From Parcubacteria group bacterium (GTDB lineage Bacteria > Patescibacteriota > Patescibacteriia > UBA9934 > GWF2-40-263), in the NCBI GenBank assembly GCA_013204395.1, contig JABMNZ010000010.1, positions 1 through 34,227 on the forward strand: a stretch of DNA of 34,227 bases. The letters run 5' to 3'. Each line of letters begins with the position of its first letter. Positions within the stretch are counted from its first letter, which is position 1. This document shows positions 9,677 to 34,227 of this stretch, in pieces. The position numbers and the translations under genes are program-made. The notes under the pieces are model-generated. The model made no database searches, was not told the DNA's origin, and saw only the letters and a program-made list of their open reading frames with translations.

Positions 9677-10489
9677 TCAGAGTGAGAGCAACTTGTTGCC
9701 GAAGCGCTCTGCTGTCTTGAGGTACTCCAAGTGGAACTTCTTGCCGATCCTTGCGAACGGGAAGGAGAAGGACACGCTATCCATCTCGATGGTTTGCTCG
9801 CATCCCTGGAGGAATTCTCGGTGAGCTCCGATGTCGTAGAAGTCAGACTCTCGCATCCAAGCCTCGACCATCTTGAAGGATGGAATACCGAAGCCGCCGT
9901 CAGTCTGGATAATGCTCTCAGTCCAGAGTGTCACCCAAAGCTTGTTCTGAGCGTCGTAGTTGGTGATCTGCTCTTCACAGAAGTCGCTGGGTGCGTGTTC
10001 TCCGTTGACGATCTGCCATCGCCTCCACCGGGCGTAGTGCTCGATGTTGCCGGGCATGATGCGATCGTTCTGCCGTGGGTCCTTCAGAATCCTGTCGGCC
10101 CAGATCTCGAAGTTGAAGGTCTGCTCGCGCAGTTCGGGGTGGATCAGGTAGACGAGAACTTCGGTGACGAAGCTTGCATCGAATTCCTGGCTGATCATCC
10201 GGGCGCGCCATTGGGACCAGGCGGGAGCTCGGAGGTCCTGTGATCGCGCTTGCTTCAGCAGCATCATGTGCCAGAGTTCGTGGAGGTACCAGAGGTCTCC
10301 GATGTAGGGATTCCACGAATAGTCACGGGTTGTGATCACGCCGAACATGGCCGTGAAGTGTCCCTTGAAGGGCTCTTCATCTGTCACATAAACGCGCGGA
10401 CAGGCTCTGCACACGCGCTGCACCAACGGAGAGTTGCGCATCAGGTCTGTCTGAAACAGGTTTCGTGAATCGACTTCTTGGATCTGCAT
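9677..10489 (-). CDS. HExxH-motif protein (putative zinc-dependent hydrolase/peptidase), 271 aa
   Basis: YLHELWHMML motif; start MQIQEV at 10489 with GGAGGA RBS (listed ORF extends to 10570 from an upstream Met without RBS). Confidence 0.6.
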   Translation of the reverse strand: MQIQEVDSRNLFQTDLMRNSPLVQRVCRACPRVYVTDEEPFKGHFTAMFGVITTRDYSWNPYIGDLWYLHELWHMMLLKQARSQDLRAPAWSQWRARMISQEFDASFVTEVLVYLIHPELREQTFNFEIWADRILKDPRQNDRIMPGNIEHYARWRRWQIVNGEHAPSDFCEEQITNYDAQNKLWVTLWTESIIQTDGGFGIPSFKMVEAWMRESDFYDIGAHREFLQGCEQTIEMDSVSFSFPFARIGKKFHLEYLKTAERFGNKLLSL

Positions 10490-10547
10490 TCGTTCCTCCA
10501 GTCCATGGAGTGGACAAGTCAAGATAGCGGAGAGTGGACTAAGTGTC

Positions 10548-10575
10548 AACCAAAAAGACCGCGTGGACAACGCGA
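10548..10575 (-). terminator. rlmN terminator; right boundary of island 1
   Basis: minus: gatcgcg-ttgtcca-cgcggtc + tttttgg just after rlmN stop (10584). Confidence 0.5.
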
Positions 10576-10583
10576 TCTTTGTG

Positions 10584-11624
10584 TTATTTAGTCTTATTAT
10601 TTTCTACAATCAATTGCCCGCAAGCCGCTGCGATATCATCTCCCATGGTGTGACGGATGGTCGTGACCACACCTTTCTCCTTTAGAATTTTTTGGAAGAG
10701 ATCTGTCGCAGATCCGGTTGAGCATTGGAACTCTACCCCCGTAAGGTTGTAGGGAATAAGGTTGACTCGCACGTTCCCGATTCTTTTTACAAAGTTTGCC
10801 AAGGTCCTGGCATGCTTCTCAGAATCATTCACATCCTTGAGCATCACATATTCAAAAGTGAGATGATGTCGACGGTTACCAAACTTCTTGAGATAGGCCT
10901 TTGCCCAGGCTTCTATCTTTGGAAGAAACTCGTCATAGGAAGTAGGGACGATCTCTTTACGCGTTGCCGGTATGGCACTGTGTAGTGAGACAGCCAAACG
11001 GATATGTGGCCAGTCATCATCTGTAAGAATTTGCTCTAGTCGAGGGAGGACGCCGACCGTTGAAACAGTAATGCGTGTGCGTCCAATGTCTGTGTGTTTC
11101 AAAATAGCATTAAGAGATTCTTTTACGGCACCGTAGTTTGCCAGTGGCTCACCCATACCCATGAAGACGATGTTACTAATTCGTCCTTCTAATTCTGGAC
11201 GCTCATCCAAGTATCTTTGCCAGAAGCGATATTGATCAATGATCTCGTCGGCAGTAAGGCTTCGGCTTAGGCCCATCTTTCCAGTTGCACAGAAACCGCA
11301 GCGCATGGCACAACCGATTTGTGATGATACACAGATGGTCCATGCTTCACGTTTGTTTTTCATCAGGACAGATTCGATCTCCTTATCGCCCTCAACTTTT
11401 AAGATGACTTTGTGTGTGTCGCCATTACCGCTTTTCAAAATATTTTCTGGTTCAACCGTTGAGAAGGGGATACTGGAGATTTTCTCTCTAATTTCTTTTG
11501 AAAGAGAGGTGAGATCCTCCCAAGATTCAGCGGTCGAAAAAAGACCCTGTTCAATTTGTTTCCAACGGAAAGCTGGCTGGTCAGGAAAGAGTGTTTCAAA
11601 TTGTTCGCGTCGTGACTTAATCAT
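10584..11624 (-). CDS. rlmN: 23S rRNA/tRNA (adenine-C2)-methyltransferase, radical SAM
   Basis: CAMRCGFCATG CxxxCxxC motif, ...GMGEPLAN..., full-length similarity to RlmN; ATG at 11624 (listed ORF starts at TTG 11633). Confidence 0.9.
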   Translation of the reverse strand: MIKSRREQFETLFPDQPAFRWKQIEQGLFSTAESWEDLTSLSKEIREKISSIPFSTVEPENILKSGNGDTHKVILKVEGDKEIESVLMKNKREAWTICVSSQIGCAMRCGFCATGKMGLSRSLTADEIIDQYRFWQRYLDERPELEGRISNIVFMGMGEPLANYGAVKESLNAILKHTDIGRTRITVSTVGVLPRLEQILTDDDWPHIRLAVSLHSAIPATRKEIVPTSYDEFLPKIEAWAKAYLKKFGNRRHHLTFEYVMLKDVNDSEKHARTLANFVKRIGNVRVNLIPYNLTGVEFQCSTGSATDLFQKILKEKGVVTTIRHTMGDDIAAACGQLIVENNKTK

Positions 11625-11667
11625 ACAAACCAATAGGCGAGAGCAAATGCTCTCGCCCAGGTAAATG

Positions 11668-12171
11668 TTATTTTGCAGCTTCTTCCCCGGCGGAGCCGGG
11701 TCCGGCTTCGCCGGAAGCCTCTGCTTCTTCTGCAGGTGCTTCTACCTCTTCTGCAGGTGCTTCCTCTACAACAGGCTTTTCGAGTTCAGCTTTTGCCGCC
11801 TCAGCAGCAGCAGCCTTCTCTTCCTCTGCCTTAGCCTTCTTTTCTTCTTCCTTCTCCTTTGCTTCTACCACCTTCTGTTCCAACTTACCTTTTCGTTTTT
11901 TGGTTAAGTGGGTGGCTGTACGCTTTTCTCCCTCAATAACCTTTTGGTCAACAAGGAGGTTCCACACACTGTCAGATGGCTGCGCACCTTGCTTGATCCA
12001 GTACTTTACGCGATCAGCATTGATGACAACTTCTTTTGGTGTTGAACGTGGGTTGTAGTGGCCAAGAATTTCGTTTGAGTTGGCCCATGGGTCACGATGC
12101 TTAGGCATAACCACAATGCGGAATACCGGTCGCTTCTTTGATCCCACACGTGAGAATCGAATTGAGAGCAT
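11668..12171 (-). CDS. rpsP: 30S ribosomal protein S16 with long A/E/K-rich C-terminal extension
   Basis: MLSIRFSRVGSKKRPVFRIVV...NRVKYWIKQGAQPS; C-terminal ~80 aa low-complexity AEK-rich. Confidence 0.9.
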   Translation of the reverse strand: MLSIRFSRVGSKKRPVFRIVVMPKHRDPWANSNEILGHYNPRSTPKEVVINADRVKYWIKQGAQPSDSVWNLLVDQKVIEGEKRTATHLTKKRKGKLEQKVVEAKEKEEEKKAKAEEEKAAAAEAAKAELEKPVVEEAPAEEVEAPAEEAEASGEAGPGSAGEEAAK

Positions 12172-18101: not shown

Positions 18102-18566
18102 CTATAACTCATCAACGTCACAAACGAATGATCCCAGATATGGATAGTTCCTCCAATCATCAACGAGACCACCCCTTTGAGGGTTTAAGAGAATGTAGGC
18201 TGCGACATCCTTTATGGATTCTTCGTTTCTTAATATGTGGTCGTAATAGCCTTTTTGCCAGAGGGGTGTCCCTGTTGTTTTTTTGAAATGGAAGCCGGTT
18301 AATTGCTTGAATGTTGCAATTGTTTTAATCAAATTTTGATCCTCATTGGTGGGGGCCATCAAGAGGTGCAGATGATCTGGCATGAAACAATAGGCATAGA
18401 TCTCCCAACTTTGCTTACAGGCACTCTTTAGATGATTGAGACAAAACTCTACGTGAGATGGTGATAGAAAATGTCGTTGACGGTTGAATGTGCAGATGGT
18501 TACTGAGTAGGCTCGCTGTTGGTTGTAGACGTCATGGGGGAGCCGGTTTTGTTTTCTTGTGAACAT
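18102..18566 (-). CDS. HuH Y1 transposase, REP-associated tyrosine transposase (RAYT)/IS200-like
   Basis: MPDHLHLLM (HuH) and LWQKGYYDHILRNEES...YILLNPQRGGLV (RAYT WQ..Y.DH signature); listed ORF extends to 18725 by reading through the repeat block. Confidence 0.75.
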   Translation of the reverse strand: MFTRKQNRLPHDVYNQQRAYSVTICTFNRQRHFLSPSHVEFCLNHLKSACKQSWEIYAYCFMPDHLHLLMAPTNEDQNLIKTIATFKQLTGFHFKKTTGTPLWQKGYYDHILRNEESIKDVAAYILLNPQRGGLVDDWRNYPYLGSFVCDVDEL

Positions 18567-18602
18567 AGGTGGTGGGTGTGACAGCGGGACGTTACGCATA
18601 TG

Positions 18603-18721
18603 ATGGCAGGCTGAAGCCAGCCTCTGCATTCCAAGTATGGTGGCAGATGCGATGGCAGGCTGAAGCCAGCCTCTACAGCGTTCGATGATACATGTGATGT
18701 AGCGGCGGGCTTCAGCCCGCC
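18603..18721. repeat. REP-like hairpin block, right end
   Basis: see left block. Confidence 0.75.
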
Positions 18722-18734
18722 ACATGTGTGTACA

Positions 18735-29230: not shown

Positions 29231-31126
29231 ATGAAAAAATACGGGACAGATCCATCAAGAGAAGAACGCGGGGCACTTAGTGAGATCGTTTCAGGTCTTC
29301 CAGGAGCTGAACTTTTTTCTTCCCTTGAACAAGCGCAAGAAGTGTGGCCAAAGGAGGTGGCAGAGCGTCCAGAATTTATTGAGCAGGTACAAGAGCGCCA
29401 GCAACTGCGTGAGCGACTTGATGTGGTGCTTCATGCACTTCCAACTCCTGACACACATGTGCTCGCTGCAATTGAAAGTAGCGAACTTTCTGAAGATCAA
29501 GTAGCTGAGCTATTTGATTCTCTCTCAACACTTCTTGGTCCGGACTCAGAATATTATAGGGCCATGCTTTATCTTCCATTTGAATTACTCCCAATTTCTG
29601 ACTGGGAGCCAAAGACGGAAGGTTTGCAGAAGTCACTGGAGACGTTTCGTCAGGTATATCTAGAAACATGGGAAGCCTCTTTGTTGGTTCATGACGTGCG
29701 AGCCAATTTTGTCGATGGTGATGTGTTGGAGGTGGAGAAGCGTGAGGGGGATTTTGATCGAGTGGTTAAAGCGGCTCATCTTATTCCAAAGTTGGTTGAA
29801 GCTGGCTTGCTCACGGTTGAGGATGTAGTGGAGCGAACGAACAGCACAACTGATCCTGTGCTTCGTCAAAGTCTTGTAGATGTTCTGCCGGTGCTCAGGG
29901 ATATGGGGTATCTAGATGATGGTGGACCAGTTTATCTTCGCGGAGAAACTGGTGTTGAGAGTAAAGATTGGGATGTGGGTGGATTGGATGATCGACTCGC
30001 CGATGGATTCGCTGAGGTTGACGCAAAAGACTACGGTGACGCATCGGACAAACGCCTTTGGTGGCTTAAGAAGGTAGGTAAGGCCGAGGTGGTTGATCTG
30101 GAAGGTAGACAGATTGCGGTTGCAATTGCCCGTGGAGAGCTTCGAGAACCTGAAGAGTCACACGGCTTCCTGGAAATGAGTCTTCCAGCTCAGCAAGCCT
30201 TTATAGAGGGGGTGCGCGTGGCTTTGGAGAATCAAGCAAAAGAAGATCTGGTGAATGCACAAGAGACGTTCGGTGTTTATAAAGACACTCTCGACGCTTT
30301 GTGGACATTGGATCAAACAGATCTTCATGGGTCACTATCTAAGTTGTTTCATAGGCTCAATGCAATCGGGGTCATTACAGACAATCAGTTGTCAGACAAA
30401 GGGATTAAGCGTCCTGAGCTCGCCGGACCATTTTCTGAGAATCTCAAACAGCATGAGGCTGAGCTGGCAGAGGTCAAGAGGGTAGCACTTGAGCTAGAAC
30501 GAGATCCATTTTTATCAAAACATGTTTTACCGGTGGTGCTCGCCTATGGTTCACGGTTGAAAGGCTACGCTCATCTAGAGTCGGACATTGATACATCCGT
30601 GTTTATTCGTCCTGGTGTAGACCCAGCTGAGGGGCCTGCCATTCGCGCTGCTCTTCACAAGTTATTCGGGGCAGATGTACTTGGTGGTGAAACCAATGAG
30701 TTCTGGCTTGATGAGGGTGAGGAAGGGGAGTTGAAAATTGCGAACCCTGAATCCTATGATAAGTACCGTGGTGAGAACTATTGGGTGAACACATTATTTA
30801 TTAGCTCGTGGGAAGGAAGGAAAAAAGAGGTTGAGGCACTGCGACAGAAAATCCTTACAGAATATTTTTACGATGATCATCCTGAGCAGTTTGGACGAGA
30901 TTCGAGAAAAGTATATTTTGAAGGAATGGAGCGAGATCTACTTCAGTACAGATTGATGCACGATGGCTATGAGCGATTCCATCCGCCCTATGGGGGAATC
31001 GATGTGCCAAGTGCGGCATCCATCGACGGTGAGAGCACCTTCTACGATTCAGGATATCGGCATACAGCAATCCAGCTCTTTGCTAGACAGATTTTCCTGC
31101 CAAAACTTGAAAGAGAATCAGAGTAA
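29231..31126 (+). CDS. large hypothetical protein with C-terminal Pol-beta-type nucleotidyltransferase domain
   Basis: 631 aa; YGSRLKGYAHLESDIDTSVF fits hG[GS]-x10-DxD NTase motif; N-terminal 430 aa unassigned. Confidence 0.6.
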   Translation: MKKYGTDPSREERGALSEIVSGLPGAELFSSLEQAQEVWPKEVAERPEFIEQVQERQQLRERLDVVLHALPTPDTHVLAAIESSELSEDQVAELFDSLSTLLGPDSEYYRAMLYLPFELLPISDWEPKTEGLQKSLETFRQVYLETWEASLLVHDVRANFVDGDVLEVEKREGDFDRVVKAAHLIPKLVEAGLLTVEDVVERTNSTTDPVLRQSLVDVLPVLRDMGYLDDGGPVYLRGETGVESKDWDVGGLDDRLADGFAEVDAKDYGDASDKRLWWLKKVGKAEVVDLEGRQIAVAIARGELREPEESHGFLEMSLPAQQAFIEGVRVALENQAKEDLVNAQETFGVYKDTLDALWTLDQTDLHGSLSKLFHRLNAIGVITDNQLSDKGIKRPELAGPFSENLKQHEAELAEVKRVALELERDPFLSKHVLPVVLAYGSRLKGYAHLESDIDTSVFIRPGVDPAEGPAIRAALHKLFGADVLGGETNEFWLDEGEEGELKIANPESYDKYRGENYWVNTLFISSWEGRKKEVEALRQKILTEYFYDDHPEQFGRDSRKVYFEGMERDLLQYRLMHDGYERFHPPYGGIDVPSAASIDGESTFYDSGYRHTAIQLFARQIFLPKLERESE

Positions 31127-31132
31127 ATAAAA

Positions 31133-31175
31133 AGGCCCGAGACTACTTGCGTAGAGTCTCGGGCTTTTGAGTTGG
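31133..31175. terminator. bidirectional terminator; left boundary of island 4
   Basis: aaaaaggcccgagactacttgcgtagagtctcgggctttt. Confidence 0.7.
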
Positions 31176-31209
31176 AGCGCGTTTGCTCCTTCCCAAGTGT
31201 GTGTCCCGT

Positions 31210-32394
31210 TCAGCGGATGGGACGACGCTCCTGGCTGCCGATGCCGGAGAGCCTGCCGACGCCGTTGCTTCCGGCGTCCAGCTCGCTCCAGGTGATCTGG
31301 GATCCGAGCATGAACAGCGCTCCGAAGTACTGCACTTCGTCGTCGCTCCGCTCTTTGCCCTCGAGAATGCCCAGGACGTACCGGACGAGGTTCTGCTCCA
31401 GACGCGGGTAGGTGGCGGGAACCACCAGGCCAAGCTTCTTGAGCATGATTTCGCGGCTGGCCGCACCGACCATGGCCGGCAGGCGCGGGTTGGTGAGCGT
31501 CTCGCTGATCTGCGTGGCCTCGTAGGCAAGCGCCGAGGCGATCTGGACTCCCGTCCCCTTGAACACGCGGTTCACCGCATCAGCGACGGCGTCGCCGGCG
31601 TCGCGAACGACGCCCGTGTCGGGCGGAGACATCACTCCCGGAGGCATTGTCATGCCGGTTCCTTTGCCCATCATCATCATCATCATCATGTTCGGGTTGC
31701 TCGTGCCTTGCATCCAGGCTTCCTGCCACCCCTTGAGGGTCTCGTGGAAGGTCAGGATGGCGGGCCAGAGCTCATCGTCCAAACGCCTGAGCAAGACGTC
31801 CTTGCGGGCCTTGGTGACGAAGTTGCCGTCCATGCCGTCGATGGCATCGAACAGATCTCCGTAGCTGCGACGGGTGAGCAGCTTGCGCAGGGCGAAGAAT
31901 TCGGGCGGAACCTGCTCCTCGGACTCGTCGGTGAAGGCTTCCATCGCCTGGACCAGCCGTTCGGGGGCCTGGAAGAGGCCGGCACGGTTGGCCATGGCAG
32001 CGCGGATGGCGGCGATCACGGTCGACTGGTCGACCTTGAGGACACCGCCGGAGCGCAGGGCCATCAGCCAGGACTCGTTGCTGGGAACCGCTGGCAGCAG
32101 GGAGTCGATCGACACCGCGCTGACTTCCGCTGCGTGATCCCTCGGGCCGGCGGCCGGGGCCGGCTCGGGCTCGGGTACCTTGACCGCGGCGAGCAGCTTG
32201 CGGGCCGGGATGGCCTTCATGCCGACGTCGGTGAGGTCGCTTTCGGTGAGCATGGCCAGGTCGGCCACGCTGGTGACGCCCAGCTCGTCCACGATCTTCG
32301 TGGCGATGTCTTCGGCGACGCCCAGGGCGACGATCTGCTCGAGCAGGGTGGGTTCGGCGGTCTTGGTCTCTTCGGTCTTCTTCTTGGCAGCCAT
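31210..32394 (-). CDS. hypothetical protein with N-terminal helical DNA/RNA-binding-like segment and an M7 poly-methionine tract
   Basis: start MAAKKKTEETK with GGAGG RBS; NPNMMMMMMMGKGTGMTMPP encoded by (CAT)7 on the plus strand; the plus-strand ORF 31183..32412 (G/D/H/R-rich, His7) is judged the antisense artefact. Confidence 0.6.
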   Translation of the reverse strand: MAAKKKTEETKTAEPTLLEQIVALGVAEDIATKIVDELGVTSVADLAMLTESDLTDVGMKAIPARKLLAAVKVPEPEPAPAAGPRDHAAEVSAVSIDSLLPAVPSNESWLMALRSGGVLKVDQSTVIAAIRAAMANRAGLFQAPERLVQAMEAFTDESEEQVPPEFFALRKLLTRRSYGDLFDAIDGMDGNFVTKARKDVLLRRLDDELWPAILTFHETLKGWQEAWMQGTSNPNMMMMMMMGKGTGMTMPPGVMSPPDTGVVRDAGDAVADAVNRVFKGTGVQIASALAYEATQISETLTNPRLPAMVGAASREIMLKKLGLVVPATYPRLEQNLVRYVLGILEGKERSDDEVQYFGALFMLGSQITWSELDAGSNGVGRLSGIGSQERRPIR

Positions 32395-32408
32395 GATGGC
32401 CTCCACTT

Positions 32409-33788
32409 CTAGTTGAGTACTTTGTCGGCTTCCGTTGGTCCAAGCGAGAGCATTCTCACAGGGACCTTTAGGCAATCGTCGAGGACTGCCTTGACCAGAC
32501 GGAAGAGCTGGTCGGATGTGGCGCCACTTGGGACGTCCACGGATGTGATGTCAGGCGTGCAGGCGTTCACCTTTTCACCTAACGCTTCTGTGTAGCGCAT
32601 CTGCTCTTCGTCATTGCCTGTGCGCTGACGAAGTTCACCTTCCTGTGTGAAGTAGGTGGGGTCCTGCGTGCCGGATTGGTACCGGTGGCAGATGTTCCAT
32701 GTTCCGTTGCTTGCTACCTGGTCAAACCAGGTCAGGCACAGTCCATCGTAGGCACTTGGGCCACCGCTTGCCGCGATTGCATATCGCAGAAGTGGAAGGT
32801 CCAGGGGGCCAACGCGGATTGAGCCTTGCCAACGGTTCTCATCCTTGTGCGAGCCGGGCAGTAGATGTTCGCCCATCGCAGGGTCTGCGGTGGGCATTGG
32901 TCCGGCCCCATGACGGATCGTGTATGCGCGGTGAACCGCGATGTTGACGATTTGTCCGTTGTAACCAGCCTCTTGAAGCATTCCTTGGGCGAACCGAGGG
33001 AGTGTCCGAATGGCGCTGGTGTGGGGGTGAAATCCTGTGAAGGCGTCCGTCAGGATGCCGTGTGAGCTTTCGCCCACCAGGATTTGATCTCGGCGAAGGA
33101 TGTCGCTGAATTGATCGGCGCTTGTGATGTCCAAGCTGTGGCCAACGATCTGGAATCGACGGATGACGAAGTCCAAGAACCTGTCATCGTCGATTAGGTC
33201 GAATTCCTTCTGAGCCAGCGGACGATCCTCTGGCAAGAAGGGGAACTCACGAAGCCGCTGTAGATCTGTTCGGATCTGATCCCTTACGGCCGCAAGGCGG
33301 TCGCGTAGGTCCAGACCATTGAGATCACCTGCACGTATGGAGAGCTCGGGGTGTGATTGGTCGTAGCGCACGCTTTCACCTACGCCCGTACCGATCGTTC
33401 CTCTCGGGTTGTTCCCCCGAGCGAGCTCCTTGATGTGCGAGGCAATTCCGTGCAGCGGCGTCGCACACAGGCAAGCTTCGTGCGCCCGCATGAGGGCAAA
33501 GGGGTCGGCGACCCCAGCCTCACGCAGAGCTTTGGCTTCATTTAGCAGTCCTTCCGGATGCGCAATGAAGCGCGGGCTCATGAGGGTTGGTATTCCCTCG
33601 AAGGTGCCGCACCCCCACTGGCTGAACGCGAATTCATTACCAGAGGAGGTGCGCACACCATGACTTCCCTGGGCACCACCGATCTTGAGGATCAGTGCGG
33701 CGCCCATGGCGGTGGCAATCCTGTGAACTGCCCCACCCTTGCCACCGTCCCCAGGTCCCAGGTCGGTGACGATGTAGATCTTCTTCAT
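32409..33788 (-). CDS. adenylosuccinate synthetase family protein, divergent (PurA/PurZ-like)
   Basis: 459 aa; GDGGKGG (vs GDEGKGK), GGAQGSHGV (vs GGHNAGH), GTIGTGVGESVRYD (vs GTTGRGIGPAYEDK), TIRHGAGPMPT (vs STRVGAGPFPT), QGSIRVGPLDL (vs TTGRRRRTGWLD). Confidence 0.75.
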   Translation of the reverse strand: MKKIYIVTDLGPGDGGKGGAVHRIATAMGAALILKIGGAQGSHGVRTSSGNEFAFSQWGCGTFEGIPTLMSPRFIAHPEGLLNEAKALREAGVADPFALMRAHEACLCATPLHGIASHIKELARGNNPRGTIGTGVGESVRYDQSHPELSIRAGDLNGLDLRDRLAAVRDQIRTDLQRLREFPFLPEDRPLAQKEFDLIDDDRFLDFVIRRFQIVGHSLDITSADQFSDILRRDQILVGESSHGILTDAFTGFHPHTSAIRTLPRFAQGMLQEAGYNGQIVNIAVHRAYTIRHGAGPMPTADPAMGEHLLPGSHKDENRWQGSIRVGPLDLPLLRYAIAASGGPSAYDGLCLTWFDQVASNGTWNICHRYQSGTQDPTYFTQEGELRQRTGNDEEQMRYTEALGEKVNACTPDITSVDVPSGATSDQLFRLVKAVLDDCLKVPVRMLSLGPTEADKVLN

Positions 33789-33828
33789 CGTACTCTCCTG
33801 TTACTGGGAACGGTGGCGTGTGAGTGGT

Positions 33829-34227
33829 TCAGACCCAGTCGACCGCCGGGGGCGCTTCCTCGACGGGCGTGGTGCCCAGCTCGGTCAGCTCCTCGGCGGT
33901 CAGCGGCCAGAGGTCCGTCTTCTCACGGAACAGGTCACCGGCCTTGGGCCGACGGCTGTAGTTCTCCAGAGCCGCCTGGGCCCCGATGGGGATGTTGGAC
34001 ACCGATTCGGTCACCAGAGCCGCGTCCCGCTGGTCCAGTCCGTTCTCGGTCAGGAAGTCGCTGACACCCGTCAGAGCGAGGGTTCCTTCGGTCAGGCCCA
34101 CGATGGCGGCCTGTACCTGGGGAAGCACCTCGGTGCTCGGAAGGAGGATGACCCGATCGGGCCCGTACAGATCCTTCCAGAACGCCGTGGTGTCGCGATG
34201 GCTCCGCATCGCAAACGACATCGGAAC
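33829..34227 (-). CDS. hypothetical protein, 3' part (N-terminus beyond window end)
   Basis: open frame continues to window edge; high GC; no motif recognised. Confidence 0.4.
   Translation of the reverse strand, partial: VPMSFAMRSHRDTTAFWKDLYGPDRVILLPSTEVLPQVQAAIVGLTEGTLALTGVSDFLTENGLDQRDAALVTESVSNIPIGAQAALENYSRRPKAGDLFREKTDLWPLTAEELTELGTTPVEEAPPAVDWV

Follow-up and report, generated by a model that had tools for sequence, protein, structure and literature searches.

The window analysed here is an entire contig of 34,227 bp (JABMNZ010000010.1, positions 1 to 34,227) from a metagenome-assembled genome (MAG) labelled 'Parcubacteria group bacterium'. Its right-hand end carries a group of genes built around a protein of the adenylosuccinate synthetase (PurA) superfamily. 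Genes B, C and D of this group are located on the minus strand and gene E is convergent to them, on the plus strand; C encodes the PurA-like protein. The features of the locus are as follows.

33829-34227, minus strand: the last 132 aa of gene B, which is cut by the contig end and is annotated at NCBI as a partial hypothetical protein on the same strand.
32409-33788, minus strand: gene C, encoding a 459-aa PurA-superfamily protein of a distinct clade (PF00709, homologues, AlphaFold2 model).
32395-32408, minus strand: C-D spacer of 14 nt, aagtGGAGGccatc, with a GGAGG Shine-Dalgarno sequence (direct reading).
31210-32394, minus strand: gene D, encoding 394 aa, an exact match to NCBI protein P0121.
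31669-31689, minus strand: (CAT)7 on the plus strand, that is (ATG)7, encoding M236-M242 of D (Tandem Repeats Finder: 7.0 copies, 100% match).
31121-31168, no single strand: bidirectional intrinsic terminator common to the convergent genes D (minus) and E (plus), with its hairpin at 31130-31168.
29231-31126, plus strand: gene E, encoding 631 aa, the convergent partner, with a Pol-beta-type nucleotidyltransferase core.

The TAG stop codon of gene C occupies 32411-32409, and the ATG of gene D is at 32394, 14 nt on. An earlier reading of this sequence (the original prediction) had proposed that a PurA-like gene shares an operon with a Met-rich protein at a distance of 14 nt, and both the gap and the co-operonic arrangement are seen in the minus-strand order B-C-D. 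The second protein exists as predicted, with 394 aa instead of 395, and the partial high-GC gene that had been placed after it is also present, but upstream of the PurA-like gene. The operon is closed by a strong hairpin (31130-31168; dG -20.2 kcal/mol, z -4.8), which is followed by UUUUUAUUU and preceded by an A-run. The 5' end of the contig is a partial 16S rRNA gene, and its housekeeping genes encode TrmD, SMC, ClpP, a DHH phosphoesterase and riboflavin synthase. The neighbours of the cluster in the window are riboflavin genes, with ribE and ribH adjoining E, and a gene for a Nudix hydrolase.

Gene C scores 102.8 bits against the Pfam family PF00709, for which the cut-off is 27, and 55-66 bits against the NCBIfam purA equivalogs (TIGR00184, NF002223 and others), for which the cut-offs are 395-700. 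These scores, above the family cut-off and far below those of the equivalogs, bear out the proposal that it is a non-canonical member of the superfamily. The best sequence matches in the PDB are true PurA proteins (E ~1e-12), and no PurZ is found among the PDB matches. The AlphaFold2 model (pLDDT 86) presents the PurA fold; in Foldseek its template modelling (TM) score is 0.74-0.80 to long-form PurA structures and 0.45-0.58 to PurZ and PurZ0 (7ODX, 7VF6, 6FM1) and archaeal short PurA. By alignment, C is 22% identical to E. coli PurA, 20% to phiVC8 PurZ and 31-32% to a 'PurA-like' protein of Bixzunavirus phages.

The residues of C were mapped by alignment with E. coli PurA and phiVC8 PurZ, and invariant columns were taken from 30 family members. 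G13, D14, K17, H43, the guanine-specificity Asp (LTWFD) and the S-x-G-P motif are invariant, and the window protein has GDGGKGG, GSHG, LTWFD and SLGPTE. The altered motifs described in the original prediction are real, namely LGPGDGGKGGA at residues 10-20 and IGGAQGSHGVR at residues 36-46, where E. coli PurA has GDEGKGK and GGHNAGH. In E. coli PurA, we take Asn38, Thr129, Arg143' and Gln224 to bind inosine monophosphate (IMP), and Thr300-Thr301-Gly-Arg303-x-Arg305 to form the L-aspartate loop, as defined by structural work. The substrate residues of PurA are changed in C (E14G, K18G, N38Q, T129I and Q224H, the Q224 position being an invariant His), there is no Arg at the inter-subunit R143 position, and T300, T301, R303 and R305 are absent. 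The aspartate loop, GATTGRRRR in PurA, is NRWQGSIR in the window protein and NR(W/Y)QG(K/S)(I/V)R in the family. A new set of invariant residues lines the former substrate sites: H243, R261, H293, K315, R319, Q321, R325 and W354. The catalytic Asp14 is kept and is invariant in the family, unlike in phage PurZ and PurZ0, where Ser replaces the catalytic Asp in 100% of 147 sequences of a 2026 survey (PMC12884076). With neither the IMP-binding residues conserved nor the PurZ Ser present, the predicted substrate pocket is that of neither an ordinary PurA nor a PurZ-like enzyme. As read from the alignment and the model, C is a long-form PurA fold of a separate clade, in which the GTP site and the catalytic Asp14/His43 appear to be retained. 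The IMP-phosphate clamp, Gln224 and the aspartate loop are missing from the aligned positions, and the IMP and aspartate sites are predicted to be remodelled.

A search with protein C returned 917 homologues at E<=0.001; the best 120 of them are 54-68% identical, and nearly all the named ones are from Parcubacteria, Patescibacteria or 'Candidatus ...bacteria'. D has more than 290 homologues at the same threshold, of which the best 120 are 52-62% identical and are found on the same contigs as C. Five long contigs (L002-L006) were sampled, and GTDB species representatives supplied a further 80 loci, which as labelled span Paceibacteria/Parcubacteria groups, Saccharimonadia (including the animal-associated Nanosyncoccus) and Daviesbacteria. 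Tblastn and all-against-all clustering of every open reading frame (ORF) in 83 non-redundant loci defined the following core.

A, ~273 aa: 72/83 loci, same strand as C.
B, ~379 aa: 73/83 loci, same strand as C.
C, ~459 aa: 79/83 loci, the reference.
D, ~400 aa: 54/83 loci, and a variant form in 4; same strand as C.
E, ~590-630 aa: 75/83 loci, convergent.

Among the remaining loci, gene D had been assigned to the wrong strand, overlooked, or truncated at the contig end. The order A-B-C-D with a convergent E is constant in L002-L006 and in the GTDB loci, and the identity of C between classes is 42-68%. In the window, gene A falls outside the contig, and the 72 related loci that carry it have it in the same order. 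The C protein of the window belongs as one subunit to a five-gene cluster that is conserved and found widely among Patescibacteria. We are highly confident that C is neither PurA nor PurZ and that it belongs to this cluster. Typical clusters were also found in MAGs labelled 'uncultured Gammaproteobacteria', 'Fibrobacteres' and 'Omnitrophota' (L009, L013, L018, L020, L022, L035, L037 and L046); these labels are probably submitter mislabels or the contigs are mis-binned. Literature searches on adenylosuccinate in the Candidate Phyla Radiation (CPR), Patescibacteria and Saccharibacteria, on PurA-like phage proteins and on PurA homologues or paralogues did not turn up any account of this clade or cluster, and the transposon-sequencing tables of Southlakia epibionticum have no PF00709 or adenylosuccinate entry.

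Gene A encodes a protein with a profile match to the protein-kinase fold (CK2, 3e-6). Gln takes the place of the VAIK Lys, no alphaC Glu is present and the Asp of HRD is not conserved; the phage version has HGA..DN. A is thus described as kinase-like, probably a pseudokinase or an atypical kinase by its motifs. Full-length relatives of B have an invariant LDTTGSMG (D-x-T-x-S) and a later conserved (S/G)DE strand, both found also in the phage homologue; such a pattern is typical of the metal-binding site of von Willebrand factor A (vWA) domains. The B fragment of the window is 48% identical in tblastn to full-length B over residues 254-379 of 379, and a homology search with this 132-aa fragment gave only 7 short proteins. 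No match to B was found among Pfam and PDB profiles, and when B is compared by hhalign with E. coli ViaA and the phage Ro protein, their vWA domains align with it at the motif alone. B is likely a protein of the metal-ion-dependent adhesion site (MIDAS) or vWA-like type.

In D, an N-terminal domain of the (HhH)2/SAM-like type is accompanied by a Pro-rich linker, ~300 aa of all-alpha domain, a Met-rich loop and a conserved ..SGIGG tail. The all-alpha domain has no structural neighbour, and no fold match for D was found in BFVD. The variant D occurs in four loci (L005 9420-10505, L010 11428-12414, L032 11412-12383 and L045 11411-12388), in which D still has the HhH/SAM-like domain at its N-terminus and the GIG tail at its C-terminus, with an unrelated body of ~200 aa (..GVDAQSIYDADPL..RVNW..PRRR) instead of the alpha-helical one of ~300 aa. 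The C-terminus of B has a conserved acidic stretch followed by (D/N)W(L/V) (for example, L003 8830-9984; window 33829-33870), and in D the SGIGG is followed by a short basic tail; both tails look like docking or processing motifs.

In E, an uncharacterised N-terminal region of ~400 aa precedes a Pol-beta core of the form GS..x10..DxD (GSRLKGYG..SDIDxAV), with G440, S441, D452 and D454 invariant. Profile matches are to HI0073/MNT and GLD-2 nucleotidyltransferases, and the match to Pfam Polbeta is weak. From these matches E is assigned to the Pol-beta nucleotidyltransferase superfamily, with a catalytic motif that appears intact. No transmembrane segments were found in any of the five proteins A-E.

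Besides the core, the families that flank the cluster most often in the 83 loci are the following, among them proteins related to nicotinamide adenine dinucleotide (NAD).

NrtR (Nudix and NrtR winged helix): 12-13/83 loci, the commonest non-core neighbour.
PncB (nicotinate phosphoribosyltransferase): 6/83 loci.
NadD-like cytidylyltransferase-fold protein: 6/83 loci.
Isochorismatase/PncA-like protein: 6/83 loci.
NadE (NAD synthase): 5/83 loci.
ADP-ribosylglycohydrolase: 4/83 loci.

The nrtR gene adjoins A or E in L004, L009, L012, L015, L031 and L038, and it often lies immediately upstream of one of these two where no further NAD gene is close by (as in L009, L012, L015, L031 and L038). A de novo inverted-repeat search upstream of A revealed the palindrome AGTGT-N7-ACACT. 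Its strict 19-nt pattern, [AT]AGTGT-N7-ACACT[AT], was counted 26 times in 1.42 Mb, where composition-matched shuffles gave 0.4. Of these sites, eleven are upstream of A (<=320 bp) and three upstream of E; half of the other 12 precede nadB, nadD, nadE, a pncA-like gene or nrtR. With a position weight matrix, a site was found upstream of A in 24 of 74 loci, among them L006, the nearest relative of the window, against ~0.7 expected at the threshold. The form TTAGTGT-N7-ACACTAA has the exact architecture of the published NrtR operator, a 21-bp palindrome with a GT-N7-AC core, from which NrtR is released by ADP-ribose (PMC2330246).

The NrtR-type palindrome, together with the NrtR and NAD neighbours, suggests that the cluster belongs to an NAD/ADP-ribose regulon, and we regard its link to NrtR and NAD as probable. 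It resembles the NrtR regulon, which has the unexplained members nrtX-nrtY (Rodionov et al. 2008), in its operator architecture, in its co-localisation with nrtR, pncA, pncB, nadD and nadE, and in the logic of a response to ADP-ribose. It differs from that regulon and from the phage systems NARP1-3 in that A-E belong to no known NAD-biosynthetic or NARP family (PRPP-synthetase-like Adps, NAMPT-like Namat, NadR, PnuC). The five-gene NrtR-linked system matches no described system.

Outside the Patescibacteria, 204 phage records match C (best 31% identity, E 1e-32), all but one of them mycobacteriophages. The phage records inspected belong to phage cluster C (Bixzunavirus) and are not Z-genome phages. 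In phage Bigswole, gp094, gp093 and gp091 match the hidden Markov models (HMMs) of A, B and C (1e-21, 4e-18 and 3e-73) and are arranged as in the bacterial cluster; the two that precede the PurA-like gene are annotated as 'kinase' and hypothetical protein. No D-like or E-like genes were found in the examined 56 kb of this genome. The Bixzunavirus protein is the closest relative of the CPR C outside Patescibacteria, shares with it the loop (N/G)xWQG(K/S)xR, and lies in the same order of kinase-like (phrog_3043), MIDAS-like (phrog_2971) and PurA-like genes. Unlike the CPR proteins, it keeps Gln224 (EGAQG), and the phages have an extra 88-aa gene between B and C. The RefSeq label of the Bixzunavirus homologues is identical to that of true PurZ; here this label is a name and not evidence. 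A 224-kb phage contig in IMG/VR also has A-like and C-like genes.

Bigswole also encodes a Ro/TROVE vWA RNA-binding protein, a polynucleotide kinase and an RF-1-domain protein (L090 30734-32392; L007 5290-5811), in addition to a tmRNA and more than 30 tRNAs, and the phage A-B-C module may have an RNA-related role. Another contig filed as viral, L095 (IMGVR_UViG_3300028454_000294, 30 kb), carries a complete A-B-C-D-E at 6043-11762, with C matching at 1.6e-196, a CPR-level score. It is probably a chromosomal or prophage-bearing fragment of Patescibacteria and not a phage.

The GC content of the window steps from ~0.47 to 0.59-0.66 at ~31.1 kb. Genes A-D exceed their flanks by a mean of 7.8 GC points, with a range of 5-19 in almost every Patescibacteria lineage, and E shows no excess; in the window, the GC of E is like that of the remaining genome. 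At third codon positions (GC3) the excess is 0.19 for D, 0.13 for B, 0.09 for A and 0.04 for C, and there is none for E; in the window, B has a GC3 of 0.84, C of 0.65, D of 0.87 and E of 0.41, and most genes lie at 0.35-0.50. In L002, the genes for ribosomal protein S15 and PNPase are likewise GC3-rich. We infer that the GC step reflects the codon bias of a highly expressed operon and not foreign DNA. Horizontal transfer of a foreign island was rejected as the main cause of the step, since the operon is GC3-enriched in more than 70 loci and the adjacent E is not. The 'island' of the original prediction is thus not sustained, as the operon is GC3-rich relative to its flanks in nearly all lineages. 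GC3 along the contig is bimodal, with most genes at 0.35-0.50 and a subset at 0.65-0.87. This subset includes B, C and D, a major vault protein (MVP)-like gene, the PNP gene and two ORFs without an assigned function (8383-9549 and 9677-10570). The several 'islands' described earlier probably correspond to this codon-bias class.

The perfect (CAT)7 repeat at 31669-31689 encodes an M7 tract at residues 236-242 of D, as the original prediction had stated; its role as an in-frame length switch is not supported. The tract takes the place of a conserved Met-rich loop (ANPAMMMSAxMAASG..MPPGMMQPPDTG) without any change in length, and seven copies are present in both independent assemblies, the second being the Logan assembly L001, with 1 mismatch elsewhere in 11.3 kb. 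The longest Met run is 1-4 in 120 D homologues (2-4 typical), and a run of 7 was seen only in the window protein. By this comparison, M7 is a lineage-specific version of the conserved Met-rich loop.

A 409-aa antisense ORF with an H7 tract crosses gene D on the plus strand (31183-32412), with a counterpart in L001 at 1800-3011. The Logan gene caller picked this ORF over gene D and did likewise at the partial gene B; the antisense calls over D and B are an artefact of high GC3. The plus-strand H7 ORF was rejected as a gene, since D on the minus strand has its homologues (counted above), a Pfam hit and a Shine-Dalgarno sequence.

Elsewhere on the contig, a gene at 3459-5201 (minus strand) encodes a 580-aa protein with MVP_shoulder (1.8e-27), Vault repeats and a Band_7/SPFH core (GC3 0.76). 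MVP homologues are unusual in bacteria. A link between it and the cluster was rejected, because the two are co-located in none of the other loci. A link to riboflavin was also rejected: ribE/ribH are beside E only in 3 closely related loci, which represents lineage synteny. A SAM-I riboswitch at 8160-8264 (minus strand, 57 bits) lies directly upstream of a PNP_UDP_1 gene at 7364-8083 (minus strand), which probably encodes a methylthioadenosine/S-adenosylhomocysteine nucleosidase or phosphorylase. An IS200/Y1-type transposase gene at 18102-18725 (minus strand) adjoins the SMC gene.

We lean, with modest confidence, to the overall reading that this is a PurA-like cluster of the NAD regulon with a neofunctionalised C. 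Under this proposal, C would be a GTP-binding paralogue of adenylosuccinate synthetase with a catalytic base and acid. Since the Asp/His pair and the GTP site are kept, C most likely still phosphorylates a nucleotide-type substrate on an oxygen, using the gamma-phosphate of GTP, after which a non-aspartate nucleophile would displace the phosphate. As the IMP-clamp, base-reading and aspartate residues are swapped for another invariant set, the product would be neither adenylosuccinate nor a dZ precursor. The substrate would most likely be a nucleotide related to NAD or ADP-ribose. This specific chemistry, GTP-dependent and with an NAD-related substrate, is put forward tentatively. As a guess, the reaction could be the activation of a pyridine or ADP-ribose nucleotide followed by non-aspartate displacement, or the rebuilding or repair of NAD. 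The NrtR operator and the position among pncA, pncB, nadD, nadE and ADP-ribosylglycohydrolase genes argue for expression together with NAD salvage, presumably once ADP-ribose relieves the repression by NrtR. A, B and D would act in a complex with C, and E would modify or regulate something in the same process by nucleotidyl transfer.

Several points weigh against this proposal. The window has no NrtR box in its 34,227 bp, no nrtR gene and no other NAD salvage genes; the promoter side of the operon lies past the contig end, which would account for the missing box. Two thirds of the loci have no box recognisable with the weight matrix used. Moreover, pncA, pncB, nadD and nadE already form a complete salvage route, and there is no obvious gap in NAD metabolism that needs a new enzyme. 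Pseudokinase-like and vWA-like proteins are unusual partners for a metabolic enzyme, and the putative vWA assignment of B is a motif-based one. The substrate is read from context and the high expression from codon bias. Finally, an acidic amino acid could still be bound by K315, R319 and R325 of the remodelled loop, so that the loss of aspartate use is not proven.

An alternative is that C works as a GTP-driven switch in, or helps to assemble, an abundant complex that is structural or associated with nucleic acids, in which D would bind nucleic acid, B a peptide, and A would be a scaffold. PurA is a SIMIBI-class dimerising NTPase, and the distant Foldseek matches of C are SRP and ArsA. The absence from A of the catalytic Lys, Glu and Asp of kinases and the (HhH)2 domain of D also fit this alternative, and so does the very high GC3 of B and D, which is suggestive of abundant proteins. 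Against it, C still has Asp14 as its catalytic base and His43 as its acid, and the new invariant polar and aromatic set at the former substrate sites argues for a small-molecule substrate. We consider a switch of this kind unlikely.

It is also improbable that C is the real, very divergent adenylosuccinate synthetase of the organism, making AMP from salvaged IMP. C and PurA (EC 6.3.4.4; PF00709; E. coli b4177) share the full-length, long-form fold, the P-loop Gly, Asp and Lys, the catalytic His, the guanine Asp and S-x-G-P, and probably the same phosphotransfer step; the Pfam score above the gathering threshold, the basic residues of the remodelled loop and the database names agree with such an enzyme, as does the reliance of CPR bacteria on nucleotide interconversion (PMC11665869). 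On the other hand, the score of C is 6-7 times below every NCBIfam purA equivalog cut-off, and other invariant residues stand in place of R143, T129, Q224 and the TTGR(R)R aspartate loop. No adenylosuccinate-lyase-like gene is present among the recurrent neighbours. In place of the purine-pathway context of PurA, C has fixed kinase-like and MIDAS-like partners and an operon with the NAD-regulon operator, and its closest non-CPR relatives are in mycobacteriophages.

Similarly little probability is given to the cluster being a conflict (defence or counter-defence) module against NAD depletion, mobile between CPR and phages, that would for instance make NAD+ from ADP-ribose and nicotinamide. Its presence in part in Bixzunavirus phages (A-B-C) and in the 224-kb phage contig (A-like and C-like genes), a GC3 that differs from the host genome and the known rebuilding of NAD+ by phages (NARP1-3) are in line with this idea. 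A kinase with a vWA protein, and an NrtR-like regulator with an ADP-ribosylglycohydrolase, are themes of predicted conflict systems, in particular of the ARG-centred Nudix/WYL systems with vWA chaperones (Iyer et al. 2022, PMC9503650), to which the cluster is similar in its NrtR-like regulator, occasional ADP-ribosylglycohydrolase and vWA-like part. Those systems, however, are patchy, fast-evolving and built on ARG and phosphatases, whereas the cluster, with its PurA-like core, is a single syntenic, slowly evolving locus in each sampled CPR genome, as shown by the identity of C between classes. PADLOC gave no defence-system match for any CPR protein of the cluster, no variable accessory-gene pattern is seen, and the GC3 excess occurs in nearly all lineages.

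That C is a PurZ/PurZ0-type enzyme of the Z-base (2-aminoadenine) pathway on a mobile island, as the original prediction had suggested from the altered P-loop, is hardly credible: the common superfamily, the non-canonical P-loop, the regional GC anomaly and the PurZ name carried by phrog_1211 (match 1e-36) and by the RefSeq Bixzunavirus entries speak for it, but the retained catalytic Asp already contradicts it, identity and TM scores are low, PurZ/PurZ0 (6FM1, 7ODX, 7VF6) are short-form proteins (~340-370 aa) that keep the aspartate site and have datZ/mazZ/dpoZ or dutZ/dmtZ companions, and the GC anomaly is general to an operon that is chromosomal, with 16S rRNA and housekeeping genes on its contig, and syntenic across classes. 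No datZ, mazZ (DUF550), dpoZ, dutZ or dmtZ-type genes were found in the window or among the recurrent neighbours in the 83 loci.

Returning to the NAD-regulon proposal, the finding bears on how these genomes are read. Patescibacteria cannot make nucleotides de novo. NCBI and JGI name the protein 'adenylosuccinate synthetase' in many Patescibacteria records, and reconstructions of the IMP-to-AMP step made on that basis are probably wrong. Four of the five genes of the cluster have no assigned function; its constant order across the classes sampled, its operator and a codon bias like that of the highly expressed S15 and PNPase genes point to a probably central part of NAD/ADP-ribose physiology. 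C represents a PurA scaffold with its phosphotransfer apparatus apparently intact and its acceptor site rebuilt, and is a target for the discovery of a new reaction. More than 200 Bixzunavirus genomes carry a homologue of C, for which the CPR context gives a testable NAD lead. More speculatively, and with some doubt, A-B-C-D and E may form an unrecognised enzyme machine of NAD/ADP-ribose turnover that would serve Patescibacteria as a core, highly expressed function, in which the PurA-like subunit would catalyse a new GTP-dependent reaction and from which A-B-C would have been captured by large actinophages to manipulate the NAD of their hosts.

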